A DNA stretch of 64,000 nucleotides, from contig NIVC01003425.1 in the NCBI GenBank assembly GCA_002269645.1, forward strand, positions 62,001 through 126,000. Direction: 5' to 3'. This DNA is from Macrostomum lignano (taxonomy: Eukaryota). The notes beneath the pieces were generated by a model. The model saw only the letters and a program-made list of their open reading frames with translations. It was not told where the DNA came from and did no database searches. The translations under genes were made by a program, and so were the position numbers. Below, piece after piece: positions 15,501 through 64,000 of this stretch; position 1 is the first letter of the stretch, and every line of letters begins with the position of its first letter.

Positions 15501-15557
15501 CATTCTCTCCTCTCTCCATGTCATTCTTTCCTCCTCTCTCTCTTTCCCTCCATTTGC

Positions 15558-15603
<46 letters not shown>

Positions 15604-15778
15604 GCGCCTCTCCTTTCCCCTATATGTAATCTTTAACTTCCTGCTATGTGATAGGGTCCGTTCTAAAAACATAATTGCAAGAATTTAATATTTGCAGGCT
15701 CCCCAATTTTAAAGGAATCTTATCTTTAGAAATATCCCCATTTCTATCAAAATCATAGCTTCCCATCCGGACTGATCC

Positions 15779-15810
<32 letters not shown>

Positions 15811-18800
15811 GCGCCTCTCCTTTCCCCTATATGTAATCTCTAACTTCCTGCTATGTGATAGGGTCCGTTCTAAAAACATAATTGCAAGAATTTAATATTT
15901 GCAGGCTCCCCAATTTTAAAGGAATCTTATCTTTAGAAATATCCCCATTTCTATCAAAATCATGGCTTCCCATCCGGACTGATCCCTCCCTCTCTCTGTG
16001 TTTGCACCTGTCAGCCTGTGGCCCATCTGATAATCCTTCCGCGTGGGAATTATTTTTTTCAACTTTTATCCCGTGGCCTGAAAACAGATTCCTTCTTGTC
16101 TCTGAAAATGCAAGTACAAATTTGGAATTTACTAATCGGTGCCTTTTTGCTACGCCTTAAAACCAATTATGGATTCATTTAATTACTTTCGTCCTTTACT
16201 TTTGCTGGCGCTCAACTCAACCCAATCATTGAGGCCGCTAGCGTTTAAACCAGCTGTTTTTAACCTAGCATTTTTTTATAATCACAAGATTAATAAATTG
16301 TACAGCATATCTGCAATAAAATCAACATGTACTGATGTATTCTATTGAACTCTGACCCATAATGACCCAGTAAGGATCCTGACACACAATGACTCTTTAC
16401 ACTAGTACAGTAGGTACTCTCTGACCTACAATGATCCAGTAAGGGCTCTCTGACCCACAATGACTCAGTAGGTACTCTATGACCCACAATGACTCAGTGA
16501 GGTACTCTATGACCCACAATGACTCAGTAGGTACTCTATGACCCACAATGACTCAGTAGGTACTCTATGACCCACAATGATCCAGTAAGGGCTCTCTGAC
16601 CCACAATGACTCAGTAGGTACTCTCTGACCCACAATGACTCAGTAGGTACTCTCTGACCCACAATGACTCAGTAGGTACTCTATGACTCACAATGACTCA
16701 GTAGGTACTCTATGACCCACAATCAACAAGTTGAAAAAGTTGACTCTGACTCGCTTGATCTCGGTTGACTCAGTAGGTACTTTATGACCCGCAATGATCC
16801 AGTAAGGACTCTCTGACCTACAATGACTATAAACGCATCACGCTGAAAACTCTTTGCAGATGCGCGGAGCTGTCCAGCGCAGCCGAAGGAATGCGCGCCC
16901 GACTGTCCGAGTTTGGCCGCGAACGCGAGTCCATCGAGCGCCGATTCTCCGCCCAGCTGTCCGAAGCGGCCAGCCGCCAGTCCGAGCTGGAGGCCACTGT
17001 CAATCAGCTGCGAGCCCAGCTAGACGAAGCGCGCTCCGAAGTTGACCGCCTGCGCGCGGGAATCGGCGCCCTATCCGAGGCCGAGATCGAGCGCCTGGCG
17101 CCAGCGGCCGCCGCCACCAGTCGAATGCTGAAGCGAGGCAAAACTCTCACTCAGATCTACGCCGAGCACGTGGAGGTTCAAGGCCAGCTGTCAGCGGCCC
17201 GGCTAGAGGCCGACAAAGCTAATCTCGCTGTCGCGCACATCCTGGAGGAGGTGCAGGCCAAGGTGCCGGTCATCCGCCGGCGCCAGGAAGAATGTCGGCG
17301 GGTGCGCCTGTCCGCTGTGCAGCTGGCCAAGCGGCTTGACGAGTCCGTAGCTCAGATGTGCGACTTGAAACGGACGAACGAGGAGCTGGAAAGGAAGGCG
17401 GCCTTCTTTGAACGGGAGAATGCGAGGCTGAAGGCTCGGGCTGGGGATCTGGGCGAGCAGGTGAGTATAATCTCGGTTGATCCTCAATTCAGCTCCCTTT
17501 GTCTGATTCTTGATCCCAACCCCAGATATCCATTGATCCAAATTCCAGATTCATTGATCCCAACCCCAGATATCCATTGATCCAAATTCCAGATTCATTG
17601 ATCCCAACCCCAGATATCCATTGATCCGAATTCCAGATTCATTGATCCCAACCCCAGATATCCATTGATCCGAATTCCAGATTCATTGATCCCAACCCCA
17701 GATATCCATTGATCCGAATTCCAGATTCATTGATCCCAACCCCAGATATCCATTGATCCAAATTCCAGATTCATTGATCCCAACCCCAGATATCCATTGA
17801 TCCAAATTCCAGATTCATTGATCCCAACCCCAGATATCCATTGATCCAAATTCCAGATTCATTGATCCCAACCCCAGATATCCATTGATCCAAATTCCAG
17901 ATTCATTGATCCCAACCCCAGATATCCATTGATCCAAATTCCATATTCATTGATCCCAACCCCAGATATCCATTGATCCAAATTCCAGATTCATGGATCC
18001 CAACCCCAGATATCCATTGATCCAAATTCCAGATTCATTGCTCCCAACCCCAGATATCCATTGATCCAAATTCCATATTCATTGATCCCAACCCCAGATA
18101 TCCATTGATCCAAATTCCAGATTCATGGATCCCATCCCCAGATATCCATTGATCCAAATTCCAGATTCATGGATCCAAATTCCAGATTCATTGATCCAAA
18201 TTTCAGATTCATTAATCTCATTTCTATATCCATTGATCCCAGTTCCATATCCATTGATCCCATTTATCTATCCATTGATCCCAGTTCCCTATCCATTGAT
18301 CCCATTTATCTATCCATTGATCCCAGTTCCCTATCCATTGATCCCAGTTCCATATCCATTGATCCCATTTATCTATCCATTGATCCCATTTATCTTTCCA
18401 TTGATCCCATTTATCTATCCATTGATCTCAGTTCCATATCCATTGATCCCATTTATCTATCCATTGATCCCAGTTCCCTATCCATTGATCCCATTTATCT
18501 ATCCATTGATCCCAGTTCCCTATCCATTGATCCCAGTTCCATATCCATTGATCCCATTTATCTATCCATTGATCCCATTTATCTTTCCATTGATCCCATT
18601 TATCTATCCATTGATCTCAGTTCCATATCCATTGATCCCATTTATCTATCCATTGATCCCAGTTCCCTATCCATTGATCCCATTTATCTATCCATTGATC
18701 CCAGTTCCATATCCATTGATCCCATTTATCTATCCATTGATCCCATTTATCTTTCCATTGATCCCATTTATCTATCCATTGATCTCAGTTCCATATCCAT

Positions 18801-21800: not shown

Positions 21801-23086
21801 AGAAATCCTCAGCCATTGCCGCCTACAAAGAGGAGCTGGCGGAGCTGAGAGAGCGGCTGAAAGCGATGGAGCGCGACTGCGAGCTGCTGCGCGGCCAGGC
21901 TGAGAACTACCGCGCCATGGCGGAGGGCGCCGAGGCCAGGCTGACTCAGCAGGCCGAGGAGCATCAAACCGCCGTTGGCGAGTTCGAGGCCAGGCTTCGG
22001 GAGCGGCAGGAATCAATTGACTATTATCGGTGAGATAGGGCTCTTGTCTCCGCTTGACCATGTTGCTGTGGTTAGCGAGCTTTTTGTGATAATAGTTGCC
22101 ACGCTGTTGGCATTGTGTTTCTATGCTGTTGCCATTGTGTTGCTATGCTGTTGTCATGGTGTTGCTATGCCTATGCTGTTGTCATGGTGTTGCTATGCCT
22201 ATGCTGTTGTCATGGTGTTGCTATGCCTATGCTGTTGTCATGGTGTTGCTATGCTGTTGTCATATGGTGTTGCTATGCTGTTGCTATGTTGTTGCTATGA
22301 TGTCGCCATGGTGTTGCTATGCTGTTGTCATGGGGTTGTCATGCTGTTTTTATGCTGTTGCCATGATTTTGCTATGCTGTTGCTATACTACTGTTGCTAC
22401 GTTGTTGCCATGGTGTTGCTATGCTGTTGCTATACTACTGTTGCTACGTTGTTGCCATGGTGTTGCTATGCTGTTGCTATGCAACCAGATCGCCATGACG
22501 TCAACCATTTGCCACCCGTGTCCCCGCCAGCTCCCAGCTGGACAGTCTAGAACGCGAGCGCCAGACCCTGGTAAGCGACCGGTTCAAGCAGACAGAGGAG
22601 GCGCACGCCATGAACGCCGACCTGCGCAAGCAGCTGCACGATCGCCAGCAGGAGCTACAGGCGGCTGTTGAACGTCGCGACGCAGCTGTCAGCGCCGAGG
22701 ACCGCGCCAAAGCCCGGGCGACGGCTGAGGCGGCCAAAGCGGCCGAGGCGGCGGACAAATACCAGCAGGAGCTGCTGCTGCACGCGGCCGATGCCAAGGC
22801 CATGCAGGCCATCCGGGCGCAGCTGGCCGAAGCGGAGAAGACCTGCGCCGAGGCGCGCGAAGAGACGCGCAAATCGCGCGCGGATTACGAGAAGCGAATC
22901 GCCGCCCTGACAGCAGAAGCGCAGCGGCTGAGAGCCAGCAAGACGGAGGCCGAGACGCGGCTCACCCAGCTGGCTGCCGAGTTCTCCGACGTCCGGCGCC
23001 GCCTCCTGGCTGCCGAGGAGGCCGGCGGGGCGCCCGCTGGCAAAACCGGCGGAGATCGACGGGACTCGCTGGCTCTGGAGGTGAGA

Positions 23087-23169
<83 letters not shown>

Positions 23170-23263
23170 GCCTGTCTGTCTGTCTGTCTGTCTGTCTGTC
23201 TGCCTGTCTGTCTGTCTGCCTGTCTGTCTGTCTGTCTGTCTCTGCCTGTCTGTCTGTCTGTCC

Positions 23264-23295
<32 letters not shown>

Positions 23296-26200
23296 GCCTG
23301 TTTGCCTGTCTGTATTTCTTTCTATCTATCCTTCCATCTTCCTCCCCCCAACAGGACCGGGCCCGTCAGGTGGCCGAGTACCAGGCCGAAGCTGCCCGCG
23401 CCGAGGCCTGCCGTCTGTCCCGCCAGCTCGAGTCCACCCGGGCAGCCCTGGACGAGGCCCGCTCCGCCCTGGCCGCCTCGGCCGCGGTGCCGTCCCGCCA
23501 GCTGGCGGACGCTGACGAGCGGGCGGAGCTGGTCCGGGCCCGCGAGCAGATCAACCTGCTCACGGAGAGCAACCGGCTGCTGCGCCAGGATGAGGCCCGC
23601 TGGCGGGCGCGCACGGGCGAGCTGAGCAGTCGGGCTGACGAGCTGGCCGCTCAGCTGGCGCCGCTCCGCGCTCAACTGGCCGCGGCGGCAACTCAGCAAG
23701 CCGAAGCCGAGGAGTCCGCCAGGCTGCTCACCGAGGAGCGGAACCGGTGGCGCGACCGCTGCCAGGAGCTGCTGGAGAAGACGGAACGGATGGACGCCGA
23801 CCAGTACAAGCAGGCCTGCTCTGAGAGGGACGCTTTGCAGGTTTGTTGCTAGGGGTGGAGTTTGGAGCCGACTCTTACAGTTTTTTATCAAATTTCTAAT
23901 ACCTTTTATGTCAGGTTAATCCGCCCGCTGTCTATCCTAATCCAATTCCGTTGTTTCTCTCCTCCGAACTTAATTAATCCACCTCTAGGCTCCTCTGCCG
24001 CTTTAATCCGCTTCTAGACTCACTCTGTCCCCTTAAACCGCTTCTAGACTCACTCTGTCCCCTTAATCCGCCGCTAGACTCACTCTGTCCCCTTAATCCG
24101 CCTCTAGACTCACTCTGTCCCCTTAATCCGCTTCTAGACTCACTCTGTCCCCTTAATCCACCTCTAGACTCACTCTGTCCCTTAATCCGCCTCTTGACTC
24201 ACTCTGTCCCCTTAATCCGCCTCTAGACTCACTCTGTCCCCTTAATCCGTTTCTAGACTCACTCTGTCCCCTTAATCCGCCTCTAGACTCACTCTGTCCG
24301 CTTAATCCGCCTCTAGACTCACTCTGTCCCCTTAATCCGCCTCTAGACTCACTCTGTCCCCTTAATCCGCTTCTAGACTCACTCTGTCCCCTTAATCCGC
24401 CTCTAGACTCACTCTGTCCCCTTAATCCGCCTCTTGACTCACTCTGTCCCCTTAATCCGCCTCTAGACTCACTCTGTCCCCTTAATCCGTTTCTAGACTC
24501 ACTCTGTCCCCTTAATCCGCCTCTAGACTCACTCTGTCCCCTTAATCCGCTTCTAGACTCACTCTGTCCCCTTAATCCGCCTCTAGACTCACTCTGTCCC
24601 CTTAATCCGCCTCTAGACTCACTCTGTCCCCTTAATCCGCCTCTAGACTCACTCTGTCCCCTTAATCCGCCTCTAGACTCACTCTGTCCCCTTAATCCGC
24701 CTCTAGACTCACTCTGTCCCCTTAATCCGCCTCTAGACTCACTCTGTCCCCTTAATCCGCCTCTAGACTCACTCTGTCCCCTTAATCCGCCTCTAGACTC
24801 ACTCCATCTCATTAATCCGCCATCCCCCCAGACCCAAGTGGAAAGCCTCAAAGAAGAGGTGGACGCACTGAACTCTGACATCGCCGACTTGAACAACCAG
24901 CTGGAGGAGACCAGCGAGAAGTACGAGGCGCTGACAGAGGAATCCAAGGCCACCCAGGACCGTCTGGCCTCCGTGACCAGCGAACGGGACGACATTGACC
25001 AGGTGCTGGCGCAGAAGGTCAAGGAGCTCGAGGAGCTCGCGGCCGATCGGGATCGCCTGGCCAGGACGCTTGAGGAGCAGCGGGAGCGGTACAAGCGGGT
25101 GCAGGAGGTGGCCAGGAAGTACAAGCAGGAGGCTGTGGAATTGCGGTCCGGTCGCGATGGCGGAGAGTCTGAGCTGGCCAAGCTGAATCAGAAGGTTTGC
25201 TATTGGCTGCTCTGGGATTGTGGGGTTCCACTGGGTTCCGTGGGTTTCCTGTAGGGAAATGTCGATCTAAATTAATCTACCTGCGAGATATCAATCTGCC
25301 TGAGGGATATCAATCTGCCTGAGGGATATCAATCTGCCTGAGGGATATCAATCTGCCTGAGGGATATCAATCTGAGGGATATCAATGTACCTGCGAGATA
25401 TCAATCTGCCTGAGGGATATCAATCTGCCTGAGGGATATCAATCTGAGGGATATCAATGTACCTGCGAGATATCAATCTGCCTGAGGGATATCAATCTGC
25501 CTGAGGGATATCAATCTGCCTGAGGGATATCAATCTGCCTGAGGGATATCAATCTGCCTGAGGGATATCAATCTGCCTGAGGGATATCAATCTGCCTGAG
25601 GGATATCAATCTGCCTAGGGATATCAATCTGCCTAAAGATATCAATCTGCCTGAGGGATATCAATCTGCCTGAGGGATATCAATCTGCCTGAGATAACAA
25701 TCTCCACCCGCATTCACAACGAGCGGCGCCATCCCCTCCCCGCGGCCGCAGGTGTCCGAGCTCGAGGCCGCCCTGGCCGCCGCCCGCACAGAGTCGCAGG
25801 CCGAAATCGAGCGACTTCGCGAGGAGGCCTCCGAAGCCCGGATGCGCACGGCGGCCATTGAGAACCACTCCAAGAAGCTGCTGGCTGACAATGCCGCATT
25901 GAAGACTCGAGCTGCCGAACTGGAAGCTCTTCTTCAGCAGGAGCAGCAGAAACAGCAGCAGCCTGAGCAGGAGCAGCAGATAAAGCAACAGCCTGAGCAG
26001 GAGCAGCAGAAACAGCAACAGCCTGAGCAGGAGCAGCAGAAACAGCAACAGCCTGAGCAGGAGCAGCAGATAAAGCAACAGCCTGAGCAGGAGCAGCAGA
26101 AACAGCAACAGCCTGAGCAGGAGCAGCAGAAACAGCAACAGCCTGAGCAGGAGCAGCAGAAACAGCAACAGCCTGAGCAGGAGCAGCAGAAACAGCAACA

Positions 26201-28629: not shown

Positions 28630-29360
28630 ATTGGTTGCTATTTAGTGTCAGTGACAGAATATTGTCAGCAGTTAGTGTCAGCAACTAGTGTCAGCAATTA
28701 GTGTCAGCAATTAGTGTCAGCAGCTAGCAGGATAGGATGCTCCTACAAGTGTCAGTAGCTACCGGTAGCAGGATAATTTGTAGTGTCAGTATAGGGATAT
28801 TATAGCAATTTTTGTCAGTGTAGGGATAAGTATCAGCATAGAGACACGTGTCAGCAGTTGGTGTCAGCATAGGGATAAGTAGTGTCAGCAGTCAGTGTCA
28901 GCATAGGGGTAAGTGTCAGCAGTCAGTGTCAGTATAGAGATGCGTGTCAGCAATTAGTGTCAGCATAGAGACAAGTGTCAGCAATCAGTGTCAGCAATCA
29001 GTGTCAGCATAGGGGTAAGTGTCAGCAATCAGTGTCAGCATAGGGATAAGTGTAAGCAGTCAGTGTCAGCATAGGGTCAAGTGTCAGCAATCAGTGTCAG
29101 CAATCAGTGTCAGCATAGAGACAAGTGTCAGCAATCAGTGTCAGCAATCAGTGTCAGCATAGGGATAAGTGTAAGCAGTCAGTGTCAGCATAGGGTCAAG
29201 TGTCAGCAATCAGTGTCAGCAATCAGTGTCAGCATAGGGATAAGTGTAAGCAGTCAGTGTCAGCATAGGGATAAGTGTCAGCAGTCAGTGTCAGCATAGA
29301 GTCAAGTGTCAGCAATCAGTGTCAGTATAGAGTCAAGTGTCGGCAATCAGTGTCAGTGCC
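28630..29360. repeat. agtgtcagca-core minisatellite upstream of the TRAF-like exon
   Basis: Repeated gtgtcagcaatca and gtgtcagcatagggataa units. Confidence 0.9.
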
Positions 29361-29373
29361 CTACAAACCGCAG

Positions 29374-31614
29374 CCACTCCCACGCATTCCCGCAGCTCCC
29401 ATCAGCATCGCCAGCTCCCCCAGCCGCCGTGGCCGTCGCTGGCCTCAGCGCCAGCGAACCCGCAGAGCCTGACGAGCCGGACTTTGTCAGCGCCCTGCCG
29501 GACAGGCTGAAGTGCCCCATCTGCCTCGGACACTTGAAGTCGCCGCTGCAGACCTGCTGCGGTCACCGCTTCTGCCGAGGCTGCTTCTTCTCTGCAGCCG
29601 CGGCCGCCACTGCCTCCACCACCACCTCCGGGGCAGCTTCAACAGTCCAGCAGGCGCCCCAGCTGCACCATCAGCACCTGCACCTTCATCACCACCAGCA
29701 GCATCATCAGTTCCAGCAGCCTCTGCCAGCTTCGGCAGCCGCAGCAGCAGCAGCTGCCGCCGCCGCAAGCCCGGCCTCTGTCGGCGCCCGCCGCGCCTGC
29801 CCGCTGTGCCGCTCGCCGATTCTCGACGTCGGGCCGTCGGCTGCTGGCCGCGGCGGCCTGACCGCTGGCGTGTTCAACGATCTGGCCACGGAGCGCGAGG
29901 TCCAGCAGCTGACGGTCCGATGCCCGCGCACCGGCTGCGGCGCCGCCATGGAGCTGGGCGGCCTGAGATCGCACCTGGCTACTGCCTGCCAGTTCGTGGA
30001 GGAGCTCTGCCCCGAGCAGTGCCAGGTGAGCAACCATAATTTTGCACATGCAAGCACCCAGTGTGAAACAGCACCCAATGTTCACCTGGCATCCAATGTA
30101 CACCCGGCACCCAATGTACATCCGGCACCCAATGTACACCCGGCACCCAATGTACACCCGGCACCCATTGTTCACCTGGCATCCAATGTACACCCGGCAC
30201 CCAATGTAAACCCGGCACCCAATGTACACCCAGCACCAGTGTACACCCAGCACCCAATGTACACCCGGCATCCAATGTACACCCAGCACCCAATGTACAC
30301 CCGGCACCCAATGTACACCCGGCACCCATTGTTCACCTGGCATCCAATGTACACCCGGCACCCAATGTAAACCCGGCACCCAATGTACACCCAGCACCAG
30401 TGTACACCCAGCACCCAATGTACACCCGGCATCCAATGTACACCCAGCACCCAATGTACACCCGGCACCCAATGTACACCCAGCACCCAATGTACACCCG
30501 GCACCCAATGTACACCCGGCACCCAATGTACACCCAGCACCCAATATACACCCGGTACCTAATGTTCACCTGGCATCCAATGTACACTCGGCACCCAATG
30601 TACACCCGGCACCCAATGTACACTCGGCACCCAATGTACACCCGGCACCCAATGTACACCCGGCACCCAATGTACACCCAGCACCCAATATACACCCGGT
30701 ACCTAATGTTCACCTGGCATCCAATGTACACTCGGCACCCAATGTACACCCGGCACCCAATGTACACTCGGCACCCAATGTACACCCGGTACCCAATGTA
30801 CGCCCGGCACCCATTGTTCACCTGGCATCCAATGTACACCCGGCACCCAATGTAAACCCGGCACCCAATGTACACCCAGCACCAGTGTACACCCAGCACC
30901 CAATGTACACCCGGCACCCAATGTACACCCGGCACCCAATGTACACCCAGCACCCAATGTACACCCGGCACCCAATGTACACCCGGCACCCAATGTACAC
31001 CCAGCACCCCGCCGATCATCCCGCAGTCCCGCATCCGCCGCTGCGACCTGGCCGCCCACCGAGCGGCCTGCCGGGAGCGCCAGGTGGCCTGCGTGTTCTG
31101 CTCCGCCTCGGTGCCCTACCGGCAGCTGAACTTTCACTACCTGTTCGGCTGCTCCAATTTCCCCATGCCGTGTCCGCACCGCTGCGGCCGGGTGCTGGCC
31201 GGCCATCAGCGCCTGCACGAGCACGTGGACCGCGCGTGCCCGCTCACCCTGGTGCTCTGCCCCTTCGCCAGCTTCGGCTGTCCGGCTGCCAATCGGCACA
31301 GGCGCGATCTCGGCCGCCACGTGGCCGAGGCTCACAGCTACCATCTGCAGTTGCTATGGCAACAGCAGCAGCATCCTCATCAGCAGCATCAGCAGCAGCA
31401 GCAGCAGCAGAGAGCCACCACAGCTGATCTGAACTGCATGCTGGACAAGCTGGTGGTGAACCTGCAGCAGCCGATGCAGTCACAGCAGCAGCAGATGTAC
31501 GCTGCTCAGCAACAACAGCAGCAAGCGGCTGCTCTGAGGAATCTTCTGCACCAACAACAACAGCAGCAGCAGCAACAGCAGCAGTACCAGCAGTACCAAC
31601 CCGCTTGGCGTTAA
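29374..31614 (+). CDS. TRAF-family-like RING finger plus TRAF-type zinc-finger protein, no MATH domain (exons 29374-30025, 31027-31614; 5' exon not found)
   Basis: RING CPICLGHLKSPLQTCCGHRFCRGC...CPLCR, then ATEREVQQLTVRCPRTGC, CPEQCQ|SRIRRCDLAAHRAAC, CPHRCG, CPFASFGC. Phase-0 intron gtgagc..ccgcag. Poly-Q tail and TAA at 31612-31614. Confidence 0.85.
30065..31005. repeat. 18-bp minisatellite in the TRAF-like intron
   Basis: Unit gcacccaatgtacacccg. Confidence 0.96.
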
Positions 31615-46408: not shown

Positions 46409-47209
46409 TCAGCGGCGGACAAAGAAGTCGCCGCTGCTGGCGCTGCTGAGCGCGGCCGGGACTGCAGCGAACTCCAGCAGGTGGCACAGGCGCTGCTGCT
46501 GGCTGAAGATCACCGCCTGGCAACCGGAGCGGCACCGGTACAGGCACTCGGGCAGCCCGGCACACTGCAATGTTCTGAAGGCGGGCGCATCCGGGACGCT
46601 CAGCTCAACGAAGGTCCGGTTGCCGGGGACGAACACGTTCCGGTCTGCAGATGTAGAATGGGGCCAGTTGCATTAATGTCAAGCCTTTCTACATCATAGA
46701 AAGCAAGCCTCTCTACGGCTCGTAGAGAGAAATTTGTACTTTAACCTACTTGTGCAAGCGGCTTCCGCACTGCCCGTGTAGCTCAGCCGCAGCACCCGGT
46801 TTTGGTAGCTGCCTCCGCAGTTCTGGCTCAGATTTCCACTGCAAGCATGGGTGCAGTCCGAGTCTGAAGCAGCGCCCTGCGACCCGTACGAGTTGCCGCA
46901 GAAGCACCAGTATCCGGCCTGCAGAGCCGCGAACTCAAAACTGCCCAGAGCGCAGACGCTGCCGCACAGCTCGTGAGTCATCATCCAGTAGCTGCCGACA
47001 TATGCGCCACTGCCATCGTTTATCGACATCAAACTGGAGCTGCCAATTTGTGTGAGGCCGAGGTGCTTCATTTCACCGACGTCTCTCGCGCCATTCGCGC
47101 CGTCAACGAAGCAGCCGAGGTCCGAGATCTGGAACTGACGGCAGAGAGCGGCGCAGATCAGGCAGCTCATGATCGGAGCGCAGAAGCAGATCCTGTACAG
47201 AGCCGGCAT
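46409..47209 (-). CDS. Secreted WSC-domain plus PAN/apple-like protein, 231 aa (exons 47209-46750, 46644-46409)
   Basis: Hydrophobic N-terminus MPALYRICFCAPIMSCLICAALC. WSC pattern LGCFVD...MTHELCGSVC...AALQAGYWCFCGN...CTHACSGNLSQNCGG. Phase-1 intron gtaggt..ctgcag. Second exon CAGLPECLYRCRSGCQAVIFSQQQRLCHLL. Confidence 0.88.
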
Positions 47210-48483
47210 GGTAGGCTGATTTCCAGTGCGATTTTCAGAGAAAATTGGACTCTTAGAGTAGAGAATGGATTCATCAAAGCTATTTAAAGCGGCATTATAA
47301 TTGCTAACACAGAGACAATGGGCTTTCAATACAGAACCCGCGACGTGTTTGCACAGCTGCGCTGATTGGAATCCGTGGGCTGCTGCCATTGCGTCAAATC
47401 GCATAGCCCCATCGCATAGCCCCGGAAGCACTGAATTCCTAGGCTTTTCGAATACAGCTGCACGCGCTCAAGGCCACAACGTTCGCTCCGTTGCCCTGCC
47501 GCTGTTGGCCACTGCAGCAGTGACGCGGATCTGCACCGTCTTGGCCACTTGGACGTCGCAGCATTCACTTGCACAAGGTGCAATTATTTTAATTGCGCTA
47601 AAACAGCTAACAATGTCAAATTCATCACTTACTTGTCCTCAGTTGTGTTTAGTGAGCCCTGCAGATTCATGTAGGATCTGGCTGGTCCCCTTCGGGATGG
47701 CATCGAAGGCACCCAACTTGTTGCTGACTTAAATATGGCGGCATTTTCGCACCTGCTGCTCAAACAGCTGTCGGTTATTGCTGGCTGAGGGAGGGGTAGC
47801 TCTGCAATTCCGCTGTTGCTGCAACTGTGTCCGGCATGTCAGGTCGGGTGAGGCGGAAGCAGTAACGGATGCCATTCAGCAGCAATTCAGGGTCATGGAT
47901 CGTCAGTCATCAGTTGTCAGACGGGCCTGCTGCGCTGTAGTTTGAGTACCCCAGCCGGGACGCAATTTAGTTTAATGACGTGCTGATTTAGCGCTGGTGC
48001 GCTCGTAGCAGGAGAAGCAGACATACCGGAACCTGCGGTCGCGCTAAATGCAGCCGTTGTGGTTGTTGGACTTCACGCCCCCAGCTGTCCCCCTTCCGTA
48101 TCGTCGGCCCAATCTGAGCTTTGAGTTGGTCCACTGCAGGTTGCTGATTGCAGGTTTGCGTCGCTGATTAACTTGGACTTGGATTTTTTTATCATCAGTT
48201 GGTTAGTACAGTATTACACTCGTAATGCGCCGATAGCAATATTCGCTCGTAAATCCAATGGGATCAAGAGATTTACATCAGTGGACAGAATTTGATGGGT
48301 TTGTAACCTGGGTTTTGGCTTTAAAAGCATTTGCTATTCCTCTACATGTAAGAGTATTGATAATTGATTTCACCTGCCCTAATAGACAGATGTGCAACCG
48401 ACAGCTCAGCCGCAGCTATTGTGCGGTGCATCTGAAGGCCGCGTACGGCTGTTCGGGGTTGCCACACACACCCTCAATTACTT

Positions 48484-54542: not shown

Positions 54543-55386
54543 ATGGATGATATTGGATTAAGTGCATCTAATTCTAGGCCTCTTCGAAAGCAGACAAAAA
54601 GTACTTCTAAATTTGGAAATGACAATTCAGCATTGTTTTTCTGCTTTATTCTTCACAATGTTGGCCATGATGAGCAATATGTGACCATTGCATTTGGGTC
54701 TCCCTATTGGCCAAGTACAATAACTAATGATGAAAAGTTGGAACTTGCACAAGTAAGATTTTAAGTTGGATTTATATGCATAATATTTTGTTATTGAGTA
54801 CATGGTTTCTAAAACAAATTATTCCAACTACAAATGTAATATTACTTTATTAAATTATATTTTAGGGGACTAAAGTCTTTTTACGCATGTATGGCAAACT
54901 ATTTTCTGCTACACTTGTGGCAAAAGGTAGTGAAAGGCAAATGGCTTCAACTATGAACCAACTTTCCAACTTGGTTAGTGAGGCTGAAAATACTGATTCA
55001 TTGATTAGCCAAGCTATTGAGCTTTTTGCAATGAAAGATCCCCAAGCTGGCATTGCAAATGTAAGGACAATAAGGTCATCTAGTTCAAAGCAGGTTGCTT
55101 CAAGTTCTAGTTGTCATCAGCATGGACTACTTGACGAGCTTTATGAAGTGGATAGTGAAAGTGGCGAACCAAATTTGGCGATACCAGCTACTCAATCAAT
55201 GGGTAAAACTGCAATATATATGAACTATTAATTGTTTGCAATTTGTTTTTTTTGTTGTATTATTTGATTAATTATTATTTTTTAGAAAAAGCCATTTCTG
55301 CATTTGAGAGAGAGGCATCTTTGGTTGAAAATGAGCAAGCTCGTGCCACAGGCCTCTTGACTACTAAGCAACGGCAGATGGCTTGA
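54543..55386 (+). CDS. AT-rich 3-exon orphan gene, 215 aa (exons 54543-54752, 54866-55202, 55286-55386)
   Basis: Junctions CAA|gtaaga..tttag|GGG (phase 0) and ATG G|gtaaaa..tttag|AA (phase 1) join without stops to TGA 55384-86; 648 nt total. No recognised domain. An upstream acceptor at 54531 may indicate a further exon. Confidence 0.6.
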
Positions 55387-55530
55387 TTTTGGAGGTGAGG
55401 TGGGTGTCAACCCTCCTCGCCTCTCATTGGCTGGCGCCCCGATCACTAGGTGATCGATACCCGTATCGATATCGGCGCTCGGCGCGCGCGCGCCGCAGGC
55501 GCGTGGCGCCAAGCGCCGTCCAGCCGCAGG

Positions 55531-55993
55531 CGACCCTCCCCAGCCACCGGCGACCCTCCCCAGCCGCAGGCGCACCTACCGATATGTATGCCCACCCTAC
55601 CGATATGTACCCCGATATGTACACCCTCCCGAGCCGCAGGCGCACCCTCCCGAGCCGTAGGCGCCCATGCCGCAGACGCCCATGCCGCAGGCACCCCGAG
55701 TGTACACTCTACCGAGCCGCAGGCACCCCGAGTGTACACTCTACCGATATGTACACTCTACCACTCTCCCGATATGTAGTCAACGATATTAGGCTAGTGA
55801 AAACTACTTATAGTAGGTGAAATTGAGTATATTTACATAAAAATGTAGATAAAACATATTGGTAGGTGAATAATGACGCATAATACATATTGGAGCATAT
55901 GAGCAGCAAAAACACACAATGTAGGTGTATGGGCAGAAATAGACAAAGCAGGTACTGTAGGCGCTACATAGGTGGAAATACACACACAGCAGG
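55531..55993 (+). repeat. Left terminal inverted repeat (portion matched within the window)
   Basis: Matches 64000-63525 except a ~14-bp indel, a CA unit and rare substitutions. Contains repeated gccgcaggc and accgatatgta modules. Confidence 0.95.
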
Positions 55994-56923
55994 TGCATAC
56001 ATACACACAATGTAGGTGCAAATTGAGTATAATACAGGAAAATTACATAGCATATAATGTAGGCGCATTTTAAACAATACATTTTGCATATTAACCCGCA
56101 GGCACAAATTTCAGTGCATAGGATAAAATACACACACTGGAAGTTAAGTATAATACAACATATGTATGCAAAATTAAGCATATAATGTAGGTGCAAAGTA
56201 AAATATCCAGCCCAGGATATTCGAGACACGCCCCCAGAGTCAGGGCCGGGGGATCCCAATGTACAGTGCGGGCGGAGTAACAGAGAAATTCCTCCCCAGG
56301 GCCGGGGGATCCCAAGTACAGTGCGGTCAGAGAGGAGTAACATAGAGAAATTCCTCCCCAGGGCCGGGGGATCCCAAGTACAGTTCAGGCAGAGAGCATT
56401 CCAATCCTCCCCAAATGGGGGGGTTATCAAAGACCCCTCACATTGCACAGGGCGGGCAGAATAACAGACCGCATACAAATAGGGGTTTTAGCGGATCCCA
56501 AGTACAGTGCGCTCCATGGTGTTAAATGAGGAAGGATCCCGCCCCAATGTACATTGGAGGTAGAGTAACAGACCGCATACAAAGAGAATTCCAGTCAAAC
56601 TTTACCGCAGCTCCCACCCCAAATGAGGGTTTTAGTGGATCCCCAGAGGGTAGCTCTCCAAGTTGAGGGATCCCCCCAGTGTGTTGCGAGGCCCAAGTAC
56701 AGTGCATGCAGAGAGTAACAGAGTACAAAGAGAAATTCCCTTATCAGTCAAACTCGAGCGCGATCTTCAGCCAGGGCAGTCTCCTCCTCATCAGCGCTCT
56801 CGAAACATCTGTCAAAGTAAAAATATTCAATGTAGACAGATTATATGTAATTTATATACGATTTATATGAAATTAAGCTTACCAAAAATCGGGTTCGCGC
56901 TGTACGGATACGGCACGCCTCAA

Positions 56924-57421
56924 TTAGCAACCCTCGTCAAACAGATTTCCCCAAGGGTAGGGTTTGATGCTGTCAAGGCAGTCCTGCAGATTGTCCTCTG
57001 TCTTGACTCGCTTGGCTGGAGGGGGTGCCTCAGGTGCCGGCTTGAAGAGCTTGTCCAAACGGGCGGCAAACATCCGGCGCCACAGTTCAGGCGTGAATTC
57101 GATCGTGTAGCGCCAATTAAACTTTGGGTCCTGATTGAGCCAATTGCGCAGCAAACGGATCCTCCCTCGCGAAGCTTCAACTGCCTTGAAATTGCCCAAC
57201 AGGACCCGCTTGTTCACGTGAAGGCGGGCAGCAGCCTCCAGGTCAGGGCGCGCAGCTTCGAGCTTCTTCCACTCTGGCTCGGCCAAGTAGATTGCAGGGA
57301 AGCCGTCCTTCCACACTCCGGCCTCGTTGGTGTAGAGACGCCGAATTTCAATCAAGTTGTGTTCAGTTTCAAATGTGGGCTTCCGCGCCACAAAGTTTTC
57401 GTATAGAGAGATAGAAGACAT
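56924..57421 (-). CDS. PC4-like ssDNA-binding protein with two tandem PC4-like repeats and a basic NLS-like motif, 165 aa
   Basis: IEIRRLYTNEAGVWKDGFPAIYLAEPEWKKL aligns to the PC4 core recalled as [31 protein letters not shown]. A second, weaker repeat IRLLRNWLNQDPKFNWRYTIEFTPELWRRM. PPPAKRVK near the C-terminus. Intact ATG-to-TAA ORF. Confidence 0.75.
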   Translation of the reverse strand: MSSISLYENFVARKPTFETEHNLIEIRRLYTNEAGVWKDGFPAIYLAEPEWKKLEAARPDLEAAARLHVNKRVLLGNFKAVEASRGRIRLLRNWLNQDPKFNWRYTIEFTPELWRRMFAARLDKLFKPAPEAPPPAKRVKTEDNLQDCLDSIKPYPWGNLFDEGC

Positions 57422-57439
57422 GATTTAGCAGCAGCAGCA

Positions 57440-57640
57440 GCAGAGAGCTCTCTGACAGCCGTGCAGCGCCTTATATACCCCCGGGTGGAGGGTGGGGTGG
57501 GTGATGATTTTGGGGTGATTTTTGATGATTTTGGTTGGTTTTTGGCGATTTATCCAATAACAGGCGAGCTGAGCAGATTTTTTAGTATATATACAGACCC
57601 CCAGAGCCAGGGTAGAGAGATAAATCCTTCTCTCTCCGCT
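57440..57640. promoter_or_regulatory. Divergent promoter between the PC4-like and pPolB genes
   Basis: Minus-strand TATATAA at 57477-57471, ~50 nt above the PC4 ATG. Plus-strand TATATATA at ~57585-57592, ~75 nt above the pol ATG at 57664. Confidence 0.6.
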
Positions 57641-57663
57641 CTCTCACGCTCTCTGTTTGCAAA

Positions 57664-60600
57664 ATGGCTAAACGCAGCGCCGCAGCAACTGCTTTTCTGG
57701 CTGACAAGAGGCAACGTCTTTATGGTAAGTTTTAATTAATTTCTGTCTAGACTGTAGTTGCTAGGGTGGGGGTAGGGGCTGAGCAGCAGCAGCAGCTGCA
57801 GGGTCTGTGGGACCGCAGAGTAAACAACAAAGACTGCTGCGACAGCTGCAGGGGTCTAGACTGGAGTTGCTAGGGTGGGGTGCTGCGGCAGGGTCTGTAA
57901 CAGAGAGTTGCAGGGGAGGGCTAGACAAGTTTCAGCCGGGTGTGTGCTGATAAGAAATTGCTGCTAGGGGGGTGTTGTCCAGACAGGCTGCAGCTGGGGT
58001 GCAAATTGCTGCGACAGAGAGTTGCAGGGGTGAGTAAACAAAGACTGGGGTGGGGGTTGTCTAGACAGGGAGGGGTGTGCTGATAAGAAATTGCTGCAAA
58101 AACAGACAGTTGCTAGGGTGCTGCGGCAGATAAGAAATTGCTGCAGAATCGTTGGGGCAGGCTAGACAAGTTACAGCCAGGTGGGGGCAGAGAGTTGCTG
58201 GGACTGTGTAGCGCGGGGACAGACTGATAAGAAATTGGCAGGGGCGCTACCCAGACAGGCTGCAGCTAGGTGCAAATTGCTGCGACAGAGAGTTGCAGGG
58301 GTGAGTAAACAAAGACTGCTGCGACAGGCTGCAGCGGGGGTGCAGATAAGAAATTGCAGAGAGTTGCTGCGGGGACAGCAGAGTAAACTCTGTTAAGAAA
58401 TTGCTGGGGCTAGGGCGGGGAAACACGCTGGGGCCAGGAAAATGACAGATTCTTCTGGTTTTTTATCTCCTTGTGTTTTTTCAGACGCGTTTGTCCCGCC
58501 AACACAGCCGGAATCTGTTACCGGACCGGGTGAGTTATCCAGCCCCCCCATTTCCCACACAGACCCTAGCTGACTCACACTCCCCCATTCCCCCATGCAG
58601 GTTTTACGGCTCGGCTGGATAATCAGCGTGACCTGCCCAAGTTTAGGGCAAAGGGTGTCGAGTATGTGGTGCATATTACCAACACCGAAGATTTGCGGGA
58701 GGTGTTTGCTGACATGCTCGAAGTTTTCAAGCAAGATTTGGCTGGTGATGACTTTATGGCCGCGAAATTCGAGAGCGACAATATGCTCAAAGCGGCCCAC
58801 ACTCCCCCGGTGCGTGCATCCCGCATGACGGCTGAATTGTTGTTTAAGCACATCAACAAGATTGTACAGTCGGATGCCACTGTCCTGACGGGCAACTTTT
58901 CTATCCGGTTGCTAAAGGCCTGGGTGCCTCGAGGTGGATGTGCTCTCGAGAACAAGCATCTAGAAGAGCGGCACGCCTTCTCCAAGCACTATGTCCGCAT
59001 CACCAACTCGGACAAGAGATGCCTGCTGCGCGCTCTGGTCGTGGCCTGCGCCTACCTGCAATTCGTGGCCAAGTCCATCACCAAGCAGGTGTGGCACACA
59101 ATCAAGGCCAATTCGCCCACGCAGACTAAGCTGGTGGCTGAGCTACAAATCGAAGCTGGCCTCTACACGGTAAGTTTCTAGTATTTTTCCGATAAGAATT
59201 TTTACACAGTATCGTGGAATACTAAAAGATATATTTTCTGATAAGAATTTTTACACAGTATCGGGAATACTAAAATTTTCTGATAAGATTTTTTACACAG
59301 TATCAGGGAATACTAAAAGAAATATTTTACCCTCCACACAGACTCTTCAAACCGTCTCGCAGGCTGGTCCTTTCGGGTTGGATGCACTGCCCGAAGCGAT
59401 CCGTGCCCTGAACCGGCTGCATCCGGGGCGCGATTTTGGTGTACGAGTGTACAGGGCAGAGGAGGCCAACAGGTGCATCTTCAACCTGCCTGGCACCGAG
59501 ATTCTGCACCTGCACCTGGTCGAGCAGCACTTTAATGTGGTCACCAAGCTGCCTGCGTTTTTCGGCTCTGATCACTACTGCGCCAAGTGCGAGATGGCCT
59601 ACGACTGCGCCAACGCCGAGCACAAGTGCGCTGACGCCTGCAGTACATGCAAGACTCCGGGCTCCAACTGTAAGGCAAACCGCGCATATGTAAGATGCCA
59701 GGATTGCGGGCTAAATTGCTATAATGCTCAGTGCCTAGAAAATCACAAGCGCAAGAATAAGGCGGGCAGATCGCGCTGTGATTCGGTCCACGTTTGCGGC
59801 ACGTGTGGCTATCTAGAAGAACTAAAAGTAGGCCAGCCCCCTGAGCATCAGTGTGGTTATGCCAAGTGCCCAGTCTGCAAGCAGTACGACGAAACTGCCA
59901 CCCACGAGTGCTTTGTCACCCCGCCCAAAGCCAAAGAGTCTAGCGCCCCGTATGTTTACTATGATTTCGAGACGTACGTGGACTCTGGCAAGCAGCACCG
60001 GGTACACTTGGTTACGGCTGCCACCTCCTGCGAGGCGTGTCCCAAACTCTTCCCCAGGCCCCGCTGCAGCGTGTGCGGGGGACTACACAGCTCAGCCAAT
60101 TGCATTGCGGGACGCGATTTGGCACTCGATTTCACGAGCTGTGCTCGCACAATGACTGTGCCTGTGGGATGCGAGAGTTTGTATCTGTCGGGCCGCACTC
60201 TATCGATGCATTTTACTGCTGGCTGACTAGTGTGTTCAAGCAGGGGGCAATTGCTATTGCGCACAATGGCTCTGCGTATGACGCATTCCTCCTGCTCGGC
60301 GCCCTACTCAACGGACTGGCCAAGAAGAAGCCGCAAGTGATCTTCCAGAACAGCCGCCTAATGTACATGAAGTGCGACAAGATCACCTTCAAGGACAGCC
60401 TCAATTTCATCCCTATTGGTCTGGCGCAATTCCCAAAGGCGCTTGGTTTGGGCACCCAACTGACCAAAGGAGATTTCCCGCACGTGTTTAACCAGCCTCA
60501 AAATTGGGGGTACGTCGGTCCCTACTGCTCAATTGATATGTACGGAGGAAAGAAAAACAAGCAGCATGACTCCATCGCTGACTGGCTGGCCAAGCAGGAG

Positions 60601-62702
60601 GGACAGGTGTTTAATTTCAATAAGGAGTACCTGGACTACTGCCTGCAGGACACGTTAATTTTGCGGGAAGGCTGTCTGAAATATACCCGCCTGATTAAGG
60701 ACATTTGCGGACTGGACGCATTTGTCCAATCCAACACCATTGCGGGCTTGGCTATGGCTGTTTTCACCACCAAGTTTATGGAGCCCAACACTCTTGGGGT
60801 GATTTCCCGCCGGTCCGATGTACAGTCGCACAAGGCGCGGTGCTGGCTGGCACATTTAAATGCAACCGAGTTTGGCGGCCGGTTGCGGACAGCGGACTCG
60901 GGCGGCGAGGCTTTCGCCATGGGCCGTAAGGTCGACGGCTTCGACCCAGAGACCAGGACAGTGCTGCAGTTTCATGGCTGCTTCTTCCATGGCTGTCCCA
61001 AGTGCTTCCCCAACGGCGACGTGCTGCACCCGCTCAAGAACCAGCCAATGCGGGCGATTTATGAGGAGACTGAGCGCTTCACCCGGTTGCTCTCCACTGC
61101 ATACAATGTGCGTGTTCTGTGGGAGCACGATTATCAGGACGAGGGAGCGCCAGTCCAGCAGCCTATTCGCCTGGAGGATGCCCTGTTTGGCGGCCGTACC
61201 GAGGCTTTTGTCCCGCATGCCGAGGCCACCGAGACTGTAGAGCTGCGCTATCGGGATGTGGTAAGTTTGTACACTTGTACACACAGTTGACATGCGTTTG
61301 AGTTTATCTTATCCTTATCCCCTAGGTGTCGCTCTACCCGACTGTCAACAAGTTTGACAAGTACCCTGTCGGGCACCCGGTTCACCACCCCGAGCCTCAT
61401 CTACTGGATGAGCTGCAGCTGGCCCGGTATTTTGGCATCGCCGAGGTGTCGATTCTGCCGCCAACCAATCTCCACATCCCGCTACTGCCCTCCAAGATTA
61501 ACAAGAAGCTGGTTTTCGGCCTCTGCCGCGTCTGCATGGAGACCCAGTGCAGCAGCGAGTGTACACACACTGACGCTGAGAGAATGCTCCGCGGCACGTG
61601 GTCGACCCCAGAGCTCCACAAAGCCCTGCAGTTGGGTTACAAGCTGCAGTCAGTTCATGCCCTGGCCTATTGGACCGAGACTCGCACGGGCCTGTTTGCA
61701 GATTATGTAAACACCTTTTTGAAGCTCAAAGCCGAGTCTAGCGGTTCGCCGGGATGGCTGAGGACGCCAAGGCTGCCTACATGGCCAGCTTTTTCGAGCG
61801 CGAAGGCGTCCGGCTGGAAAAGGTGGAGGAGAATCCTGGCCTGCGCTTTGTTGCCAAGATTTTTCTAAACTCGTAAGTTTTTCTACTTGCAGTGGGGGCC
61901 ATGTTTTTCTACTTACATAAAATTTATTTTTCCCCTGCAGGCTCTGGGGCAAGTTCTGCCAGCGCGACGACCTGACCTCCACAGAGATTGTGGACAGCTA
62001 CGAGGCGTGGCTGCAGCGCCTGACAGACCCCTCGATCAAGGTCAAGTCGTGCGAGCCAATTGGGGAGAGCTTCATGATGCTCGAGTACAAGCCCCGATTT
62101 GGCGGTGCTGGCGAGCGGGCGTTCAAGTACGCCAATGTACCTATTGGCGTTTTCACCACCTCCCACGCCCGGCTGCGACTCTACGAGGCTCTGGAGGGTC
62201 TAGGAACCCGCGTCATTTACGCCGATACCGATTCGTAAGTAATTTTTTCAACTGTCTCTGTCTCTCTTTCTCCCCTTAACACTTTTTATCCTTCTCCTCC
62301 TCCTCCCAGGGTCGTATACCGCTGCTCCCGGGCGAGTACGAGCCTCCGGGCGGTTCGAGTTTGGGGCAGTGGACTGACGAGGTACCTGCTGGCTGCCGCA
62401 TGGTACAGTTCACCACGGGAGGCCCCAAGCTCTACCGGTACGTGGTGGAGAAGCCCGACAGGTCGCTGTACTCGGTGCTCAAGTGCAAGGGCATCAGAGT
62501 CACGCCCGAGATTTCCGAGCGCGAGGACGAGCTGCAGGAAATTCTGCGCCACGGGGGCTCTGTCCGCCTGCCCCAGGCCCAGTTCAGGCGCGATAAGGCC
62601 AGCTGTACAATCCGGACCCTGGAGATGGACAAGACTTTCCAGCGCGTAATGACTAAGAGGGTGTATGGGGCCGCTAGCCGCCCGTATGGCTTTCGTGAGT
62701 GA
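57664..62702 (+). CDS. Protein-primed family-B DNA polymerase (Polinton type), 7 exons, ~1269 aa after correcting three single-base frameshifts
   Basis: Exons 57664-57724, 58485-58529, 58601-59169, 59363-61260, 61326-61872, 61941-62234, 62310-62702; all GT-AG with consistent phases. ExoI YYDFETY, ExoII AHNGSAYD, ExoIII YCLQD; Pol A DV|VSLYP, Pol B KIFLNS|LWGKF, Pol C YADTDS|VVY; GGPKLY, KCKGI. N-terminal NSDKRCLLRAL...HF, Cys-rich region, and internal FHGCFFHGC. -1 frameshifts near 60080, 61750 and 62327. Confidence 0.92.
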
Positions 62703-62864
62703 GTGAAAGATAAGGATCTGTCTTTACACGCCTGGGATTCCCCTATGTGCCCACTTGGGATCCCTTGACTCTTGGGGTTGAAAAATGGTTTTACGCCCGC
62801 ACTGTACTTAGGGGTCCTTACTCATTTGACACCTCCTGTACATTAAGCGGGATTCCTTCAAGTG

Positions 62865-63110
62865 TTAAAACTCCCATTTGACACCTATTCCCTCGGGGCG
62901 GTTTGTGGCCCAGCGGTCCGCCTCTTGGAGTAGAACTCCTGACATGAACTTGCTGCGCTGATTAGCGTACTGATAGCGCAATCGAAATACGTCCATTTTT
63001 CTAGCCCACTTGTGGGTACATTTACGTTGAAAGATGTTGATGCGTTCAATAACGTTGTAATAATAATAAGTCTCCACATCTTAGGGCGGCGAAACCTCCC
63101 TTTTGCTCAT
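62865..63110 (-). CDS. Candidate small element-encoded ORF; reading frame ambiguous
   Basis: Frame 1: ATG 63110 MSKREVSPP*DVETYYYY...KWEF with one internal TAA. Frame 2: ATG 63079 MWRLIIITTLLNASTS..., 64 aa, signal-peptide-like. Confidence 0.3.
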
Positions 63111-63135
63111 CTATTTTAGACAATAATGAGACTCT

Positions 63136-63227
63136 GACCCCGGGAGGTTAATGGCCGAGCGGGTAACCCTGGCGGTATAAAACAGGGTGACCCAGGCTCG
63201 ATTCCTGGCTGGGGGCTGTAGACTTTT
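63136..63227 (+). ncRNA. tRNA-like Pol III unit inside the element (non-canonical cloverleaf)
   Basis: A box TGGCCGAGCGG (63152-62); T-arm ccagg-CTCGATT-cctgg (63192-208); arm accctg/cagggt; closing stem ccccgg/ctgggg; TTTT at 63224-27. Confidence 0.6.
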
Positions 63228-63524
63228 CCGGCCCCTGCGTCCCTATTGGGTTTAATTGTGTTGAAAGTATATCGGGTCATTAGGCCGTGAACCCCCCCTT
63301 TTGGGATTTCCCCGAACCGCTTTTGTTTAATATTTATGCACCTGCGGGTTAGACAATATTTACTCTTTAGTCGGTGCGACATTATTTACGCGTCTGTTGC
63401 ACCTGGGCGTTTGCCTATAATCTGATTATACATGCGTGCCTGTATTATACAACTACACCTTATGCATGCCTTGTAAACCTGCTTTATACATTAATCCGAT
63501 ATGTATCGAAAGTACACTTTGTAA

Positions 63525-64000
63525 ACCTGCTGTGTGTATTTCCACCTATGTAGCGTCTACAGTACCTGCTTTGTCTATTTCTGCCCATACACCTACATTG
63601 TGTGTTTTTGCTGCTCATATGCTCCAATATGTACATTTTAATATGCAATATGCGTCATTATTCACCTACCAATATGTTTTATCTACATTTTTATGTAAAT
63701 ATACTCAATTTCACCTACTATAAGTAGTTTTCACTAGCCTAATATCGTTGACTACATATCGGGAGAGTGGTAGAGTGTACATATCGGTAGAGTGTACACT
63801 CGGGGTGCCTGCGGCTCGGTAGAGTGTACACTCGGGGTGCCTGCGGCATGGGCGTCTGCGGCATGGGCGCCTACGGCTCGGGAGGGTGCGCCTGCGGCTC
63901 GGGAGGGTGTACATATCGGGGTACATATCGGTAGGGTGGGCATACATATCGGTAGGTGCGCCTGCGGCTGGGGAGGGTCGCCGGTGGCTGGGGAGGGTCG
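63525..64000 (-). repeat. Right terminal inverted repeat, truncated by the window end
   Basis: Reverse complement of 55531-55993. Confidence 0.95.

Follow-up and report, generated by a model that had tools for sequence, protein, structure and literature searches.

The stretch of DNA considered here, a 64-kb window (the whole stretch that was analysed) of Macrostomum lignano (assembly GCA_002269645.1, contig NIVC01003425.1, positions 62,001 to 126,000 of the forward strand), contains a gene for a viral-type DNA polymerase, pPolB, at 57664..62702 on the plus strand. The gene is divided into seven exons by six introns and is carried by a mobile element bounded by terminal inverted repeats (TIRs), termed P. 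The window copy of P is 8812 bp long, running from 55360 to window-equivalent position 64171, with TIRs of ~630 bp and a 6-bp target duplication, and its only open reading frames (ORFs) are pPolB and a small ORF resembling PC4 (Table 1). The latter label is a lead only, as its Atlas score lies under the 0.9 line and the ORF is without a Pfam (PF02229) or PHROGs match. P is probably one half of a bipartite Polinton, the other half being a capsid- and integrase-bearing element, termed C, found elsewhere in the same genome.

Table 1. Features of the P element in the window
Feature	Position	Strand	Remarks
Left target-site duplication	55354..55359		6 bp; same hexamer after right end (window-equivalent 64172-64177, in L013)
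Left TIR of P element	55360..55990	+	begins ACTACTA; positions 8-27 vary blockwise between copies
GT-AG intron, minus-strand transcript	56809..56882	-	74 nt; 3' of the small ORF's stop in the window copy; joint in X1 and X3
PC4-like small ORF	56924..57421	-	candidate single-strand DNA-binding protein; Atlas 0.86-0.88
pPolB exon 1	57664..57724	+	ATG at 57664
Intron 1	57725..58484	+	760 nt; 487-1188 nt over 18 copies located of 21
pPolB exon 2	58485..58529	+	45 nt
Intron 2	58530..58600	+	71 nt
pPolB exon 3	58601..59169	+	putative terminal-protein region and first half of vOTU-like domain (names inferred from PMC11161782)
Intron 3	59170..59341	+	172 nt; 138-320 nt in family A, ~60 nt in family B
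pPolB exon 4	59342..61260	+	vOTU-like His, Cys-rich region, exonuclease motifs, ending at motif A Asp
Intron 4	61261..61325	+	65 nt, phase 0, inside motif A (DV|VSLYP)
pPolB exon 5	61326..61872	+	spans motif A to motif B
Intron 5	61873..61940	+	68 nt, phase 2, splits motif B Ser codon (LNS|LWGK)
pPolB exon 6	61941..62234	+	spans motif B to motif C
Intron 6	62235..62309	+	75 nt, phase 2, splits motif C Ser codon (DTDS|VVY)
pPolB exon 7	62310..62702	+	runs to stop
Right TIR of P element	63531..64000	-	extends beyond window to window-equivalent 64171

The six pPolB introns are confirmed as true spliceosomal GT-AG introns that are spliced at the level of the family. Their donors all read GT(A/G)AGT and their acceptors YAG, preceded by 60-95% pyrimidines, and GT..AG ends with a pyrimidine tract are found in 7/7 introns of the window when the minus-strand one is included. 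An in-frame stop lies no more than 15 codons into each of the six, intron 1 included, on which ground inteins and other coding insertions are rejected. Nor do the introns look like introners, as no mutual likeness beyond that of shuffled sequences was found among the six short introns of the window (15 pairs, lowest value 0.055; intron 1 and the rest of the genome stand outside this comparison). No group I or II ribozyme was matched by Rfam at the gathering score in 55300-64000.

Evidence from RNA comes from contigs of four of the 24 listed sequencing runs, of which X1, X3 and X8 (three studies) are presumed to be RNA and X19 is of a kind not given; as contigs were accepted from 90% likeness, they report on the family and not on the window copy. 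Exact skipping is seen for intron 1 in X3 and for introns 2, 4, 5 and 6 in X1, X3 and X8, one single X8 contig skipping introns 4, 5 and 6 jointly, while intron 3 is skipped in X1 (174 letters skipped, with 2 other letters between). The joints listed for X19 include no intron-skipping one, with 7 further joints outside the listing. The presumed RNA runs cover intron sequence too, which could reflect retention, pre-mRNA or DNA. A GenBank protein, ALD16274.1 (967 aa; deposited as a protein and not necessarily derived from cDNA), has no interruption in any of the three catalytic motifs and, aligned piece by piece, matches the window at 92-100%. The preliminary description had placed six GT-AG introns in this gene, the last three inside the three motifs, and had proposed RNA junctions as a check; positions and motif placement hold, and joints from three putative RNA runs now exist for all six. 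Three frame breaks in the window copy, near 60140-60210 (exon 4), 61750-61780 (exon 5) and 62320-62330 (exon 7), are private mutations or assembly errors, as the run contigs and other copies differ at these points. In the vOTU-like domain, the candidate Cys is kept in 17/17 aligned homologues (24 examined) and the His in 24/24. An earlier warning that plain ORF scans would miss this family was overstated, given that two single exon ORFs pass the PF03175 cut-off on their own (E 3e-18 and 3e-12 in a Pfam search) and many gene models exist, homologues at 97-100% being labelled Macrostomum lignano; what stands is that such scans would mislabel the gene as broken.

Between copies the introns differ in length but keep their splice sites. 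Among 21 loci of family A, introns 1-6 could be located in 18, 18, 19, 21, 21 and 21 loci, respectively, with GT in all located introns, AG in all except a single case of intron 3 that was mis-anchored, and lengths falling in all three classes modulo 3. Indels amount to 2.6-3.6 per 100 nt in introns compared to 0.03-0.24 in exons, substitution rates being similar (2.6-4.2 and 1.9-4.4, respectively). Exon 6 differs among 19 copies by 89 synonymous and 8 non-synonymous codon changes, and pPolB is, on this codon pattern, under purifying selection. A sister family (family B, 14 loci, ~65% DNA identity to family A) has introns 3-6 at codons identical to those of family A but with unrelated intron sequence (located in 11, 12, 13 and 13 loci), so that the comparison of intron positions in homologues, also proposed earlier, has been answered in favour of shared positions. 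Donor decay is seen in family B for intron 5 (3/13) and intron 6 (1/13). Intron 4 of family B is often 81 nt long and free of stops (L037:6417-6497 and sister loci), in which case failure to splice would leave 27 extra residues in motif A; it is 82 and 88 nt in other copies. The 867-aa open frames of family B were considered as cases of intron loss and rejected, being read-through of the 81-nt intron.

Two proteins from other datasets with 60-64% identity, P0091 and P0092, begin and end precisely where exon 5 does, which implies that the same two introns are probably present there. In a set of 150 representatives at greater distance, motif A is continuous in 124, motif B in 93 and motif C in 95, and P0092 alone shows both exon 5 borders by pattern. 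A quick version of the pPolB tree (108 rows x 146 columns, with rows lacking both anchor motifs excluded and 57/105 branches open) groups P-A, P-B, P0091 and P0092 (support 91), with the uninterrupted P0107 as their sister (95). A degraded Polinton-like region in the same genome (C234; L052, L075, L076) holds an intron-free pPolB that is 35-38% like that of the window, and its capsid-module ORFs resemble another family, a possible polymerase swap. The uninterrupted sister and the intron-free degraded relative together indicate that the introns were gained within the clade of P-A, P-B, P0091 and P0092. The introns are old, and four of them are common to families A and B.

The pPolB gene rides a mobile element and is not a domesticated host gene, although long nuclear residence or domestication had been put forward at first. 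Close copies occur in at least 48 places at 82-100% identity, followed by a second tier near 70%, both being lower bounds for the 764-Mb genome. Chromosomes are duplicated in this species, and copy counts may be inflated. Exact 6-bp target duplications that differ between sites flank 7/7 family-A and 2/2 family-B copies with both ends in hand, and P elements range in size from 8.8 to 10.4 kb. No integrase was matched in 40 P-side loci, and capsid, penton, ATPase and protease genes are absent from them likewise. One family-B element (L035:970-4121) has the PC4-like ORF together with a dUTPase (PHROGs E 1.7e-32), the other family-B copies having a different left arm. At two places (C2932 near 66000-69000 and C4072 near 13500-17000), P copies appear to end immediately next to capsid ORFs that are shortened and belong to a different Polinton family, possibly having inserted into them.

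The missing genes are found on C. A genome search with the end motif yielded inverted pairs of ends away from pPolB, two of which enclose this different element; the short end pattern as such shows no enrichment over the control (104/124 vs 93/123), so that only inverted pairs are informative, and the pairs on C330 and C588 enclose unrelated sequence. The ORFs of C comprise an integrase (PF00665, E 1.4e-9) and Fic-, capsid-, penton-, protease- and ATPase-like proteins, and they look continuous by sequence. The major capsid protein is well supported (Atlas 0.98 to PF21738-bearing clusters; 32% to an F54H12.2-like protein), and sequence searches of the PDB, PHROGs and a phage search gave no name for the capsid, protease or ATPase ORFs. 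Full-length matches to the capsid ORF fall into two families, with 20 at 98-100% (C1) and 23 at 83-85% (C2). Ten copies of C have both ends, nine of them measuring 9.6-10.6 kb and one 14 kb with an insertion, and 8/10 show exact 6-bp duplications. A Fic-domain ORF is present in C1 elements (L090:1490-2032; PF02661, E 1e-13), with no match in five C2 regions. The gene sets of the two elements do not overlap: eight pieces of the window pPolB and nine other pPolBs find no match in 12 C regions, while on the P side seven of those nine match 36/40 loci, and nine C ORFs find none in 40 P-side loci. Genome searches with PF00770 and PF04665 were blank, which is uninformative, as C elements with such ORFs exist. 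By these copy comparisons, P and C are both multi-copy and young.

The two elements are tied together by their ends. The ends of C1 read ACTACTA, like those of P-A, and the ends of C2 read ACTACGTA, like those of P-B. When the first 27 nt are compared, identity averages 0.63 between PA and C1 (PA-PA 0.63) and 0.67 between PB and C2 (PB-PB 0.77, C2-C2 0.79), compared to 0.40-0.43 for the cross pairs (26, 12, 11 and 10 ends compared), and identical 27-mers occur between some PA and C1 copies. On the strength of these terminal 27 nt, the two polymerase families pair with the two capsid families. With longer patterns, 57 C1-type and 222 PA-type ends are found genome-wide and none in the control. 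The 91 pPolB and 61 C-capsid places yield only three pairs on a common contig, the nearest 47 kb apart. An ordinary 16.4-kb Polinton in the same genome has different ends (AGTAG..CTACT). End positions 8-27 (window 55367-55386) consist of discrete, variable blocks that recur in P, in C and in gene-less elements, the members of each class being 95-99% alike elsewhere, and the left and right ends of a single copy differ at times; this blockwise variation suggests an exchange of tips during co-replication. The gene-less elements with PA ends (n=12, L112-L123, plus L085 and L087) are near-perfect whole-length palindromes of 6.7-9.4 kb, without a match to the P or C gene set, and 11/12 have clean 6-bp duplications. 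Their size matches that of the coding segments. The same ends also occur on a 21-kb element with 2.5-kb arms (C106:353964-375023; L082-L084) holding PC4-, integrase- and capsid-like ORFs and ORFs like the pPolB of another clade.

Taken together, P and C probably form a bipartite Polinton with mutually dependent halves, a complementation that is read from gene content and ends. P would be transcribed by the host in the nucleus and its pre-mRNA spliced by the host spliceosome, the splicing itself being shown at family level, to yield a predicted terminal protein-vOTU-exonuclease-polymerase polyprotein and a PC4-like helper. C would supply the integrase together with the capsid-, penton-, protease- and packaging ATPase-like proteins. 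Because the terminal ~31 nt are common to P and C, either element could be primed by the P polymerase and inserted by the C integrase; protein-primed copying would thus start at the ends of P, C and the palindromes, all of which would be inserted with a 6-bp target duplication, and the C capsid may package units of ~9-10 kb. P-A with C1 and P-B with C2 would have diverged side by side, and the 7-9-kb gene-less palindromes would parasitise the same ends. P would retain its introns because it is copied from DNA to DNA.

Several observations weigh against this reading. The genome searches scored the best 150 of 173 and the best 148 of 330 candidates, and a joined full-length parent may have escaped them. 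Other complete Polintons in the genome could supply integrase or polymerase, and the PF21738 search found at least 73 matches that belong to such complete elements and not to the partner of P. The stretch common to P and C ends is only ~31 nt, the TIRs being segment-specific further in, and the inner TIR of C2 resembles that of P-A instead of P-B. On C106 the shared ends enclose genes from a different Polinton clade, so that P and C are not the only elements to have them. Furthermore, few family-B loci were matched in the search for the PC4-like ORF, and the protease, ATPase and penton labels of C are drawn from motifs and weak similarity.

The strongest rival, though an unlikely one, regards P and C as having arisen separately, by deletion, from a full-length Polinton that is lost or unassembled, and as being moved by that parent or by unrelated complete Polintons, with the ends reflecting ancestry only. 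The abundance of complete Polintons of other clades agrees with this, as do the foreign cargo between the shared ends on C106 and the degraded element on C234, where a capsid gene lies 16 kb from the intron-free pPolB. On the other hand, the complete Polinton with known ends has different termini, gene content is exactly complementary in each of two separate pairs, terminal haplotypes are common to young P and C copies, and purifying selection on pPolB would not be expected for a mere passenger. Considerably less probable is that P is an autonomous replicon resembling a linear plasmid, inserted by host repair or another transposase, and that C is a virus in its own right, which has no polymerase and relies on host enzymes for its copying. 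Linear plasmids with pPolB only do have a TP-vOTU-EXO-PALM layout (TP, terminal protein) (PMC11161782), and pPolB is absent from many polinton-like viruses (PMC5499653), but the clean 6-bp duplications of P match those of the integrase-bearing C, and the ends are shared in a pair-specific manner. That the host has domesticated the gene, or that the introns persist in order to turn the polymerase on and off by tissue, would accord with spliced transcripts, conserved exons and intron coverage in the presumed RNA runs (retention, pre-mRNA or DNA), but is very improbable given dozens of dispersed copies with TIRs and differing target duplications, and intron 1 alone would suffice as a switch.

The bipartite reading can be extended to a particle-forming, multipartite animal DNA virus of the double-jelly-roll type, in which the replication segment, nuclear and spliced, integrates separately from the one for capsid and integrase, each being packaged at ~9-10 kb. 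In this extended form, which is somewhat less likely to be right than wrong, a block-variable 20-nt tip code would be exchanged, fold-back defective parasites would have the same size as the segments, the genome would hold at least two such viruses, and the introns would shield the replicase from motif-targeting rivals. No relative was found in scans of viral contigs and metagenome contigs.

Why three introns should sit in catalytic motifs is a separate matter. Under uniform placement over 1275 codons, the chance that six introns hit motifs A, B and C is 2e-5 to 2e-4, depending on the size of the windows around the motifs, a post hoc value that overstates the surprise, as these windows were set afterwards and the case was singled out among a great many. 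The placement is unlikely to arise by chance under the uniform model; the exonuclease motifs are uninterrupted by introns. The favoured, if tentative, explanation is survivor bias: without reverse transcription, introns would be lost mostly by imprecise deletion, which variable loops would tolerate but which would be lethal if it struck a catalytic motif. Chance combined with the selection of a striking case is possible and ranks behind it. Protection against homing endonucleases aimed at the motifs, or against polymerase swapping, is a somewhat weaker candidate, and an origin of the introns as relics of motif-homing elements is weaker again. The splicing-dependent switch suggested in the preliminary description fails as a reason for these positions, which bring it no gain: retention of any of the six introns already kills the protein, and with an early in-frame stop in every one, intron 1 included, the idea leaves the motif placement unexplained. 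Splicing control on top of a bipartite Polinton is a different and not exclusive matter, and we consider it rather doubtful.

Among known systems, the Polintons/Mavericks of vertebrates (PMC8097293) and nematodes (10.1101/2022.07.12.499685) and adintoviruses (PMC8502044) resemble P and C in their PF03175 pPolB, rve integrase, capsid-like genes, TIRs and 6-bp duplication, and the summed length of P and C, ~19 kb, lies inside the 12.7-24.6 kb given for intact vertebrate Mavericks (PMC8097293). They differ in that the genes here are distributed over two separate TIR-bounded elements and that pPolB has six spliced introns. The core genes of intact Mavericks are described as intronless (PMC8097293; 10.1101/2022.07.12.499685), and the initial statement that Polinton pPolB genes are usually so described agrees with these sources. 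Polinton ends follow (AGT)2//(ACT)2, (AG)3//(CT)3 or (AC)3A//T(GT)3 (PMC8097293); the ACTACTA or ACTACGTA ends of P and C fit none of these three, running ACTAC..GTAGT compared to AGTAGT..ACTACT. Two modules are also distinguished in vertebrate Mavericks, but here, unlike there, the ATPase stays with the capsid genes. To judge from their gene content, P alone and C alone fall short of the definition of a Polinton, and together would work like one.

The nearest bipartite case with pPolB in the sources cited is that of the Bidnaviridae (Bombyx mori bidensovirus; PMC4061559; PMC8502044), which are bipartite, have a polinton-derived pPolB and carry matching termini on both segments. These are single-stranded DNA viruses with a parvovirus-type capsid and have pPolB and capsid both on VD1, and the consulted text of these papers describes no integrase, whereas in the present case the polymerase is on one integrating element and the capsid on another. 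Cytoplasmic linear plasmids and transpovirons (PMC11161782) are likewise capsid-less replicons built on a TP-vOTU-pPolB polyprotein, but P is nuclear (spliced), is integrated with duplications and has an end-matched capsid/integrase partner. Spliceosomal introns have been described in maverick-polinton-like proviruses of dinoflagellates (10.1101/2025.03.18.643946), where they are recent multi-copy introner insertions, while the introns here are mutually unlike, old and at the same codons in families 65% alike in DNA. PolB inteins of the pol-c allele, YGD/TDS (PMC549080), also interrupt the motif C region, but here 65-75-nt GT-AG introns are cut from RNA, and intron 6 lies after DTDS and not between D and T. 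Neither a spliceosomal pPolB intron nor a split Polinton appears in the available text of PMC10748475, PMC12220804, PMC8502044, PMC6431247, PMC11131425 and 10.64898/2026.10.13.758929, and no description of a split Polinton or of this element was found in the literature searched, a scope that leaves out the founding Polinton papers, Repbase and Dfam.

The remainder of the window holds further features. A 121-aa ORF without a Pfam match lies directly 5' of the element (54866-55353). A multi-exon coiled-coil gene at 12000-32800 has a TPR/MLP1 match at 22499-23512, with tandem arrays of 18, 21, 23 and 30 nt near the same interval and a RING finger ORF at 29300-30367. Host-gene exons encode C2H2 zinc-finger and WSC domains (2372-3058 and 46697-47467, respectively, both on the minus strand).

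For the biology of Polintons, the introns show that a mobile replicase of this group can depend on the spliceosome over long times. To screens that assume pPolB and integrase in one intronless element, P would pass for a broken fragment and C for a remnant without polymerase. The members, whether they carry genes or not, keep to a near-constant size of 7-10 kb, which hints indirectly at packaging and bears on the question of particle formation by animal Polintons. The presence of two pairs with matching ends in a single genome suggests that genomes of this virus lineage have become segmented. This would offer a natural case for the idea that multipartite viruses arise from complementary defective genomes, and would do so in a laboratory animal in which copies are expressed.

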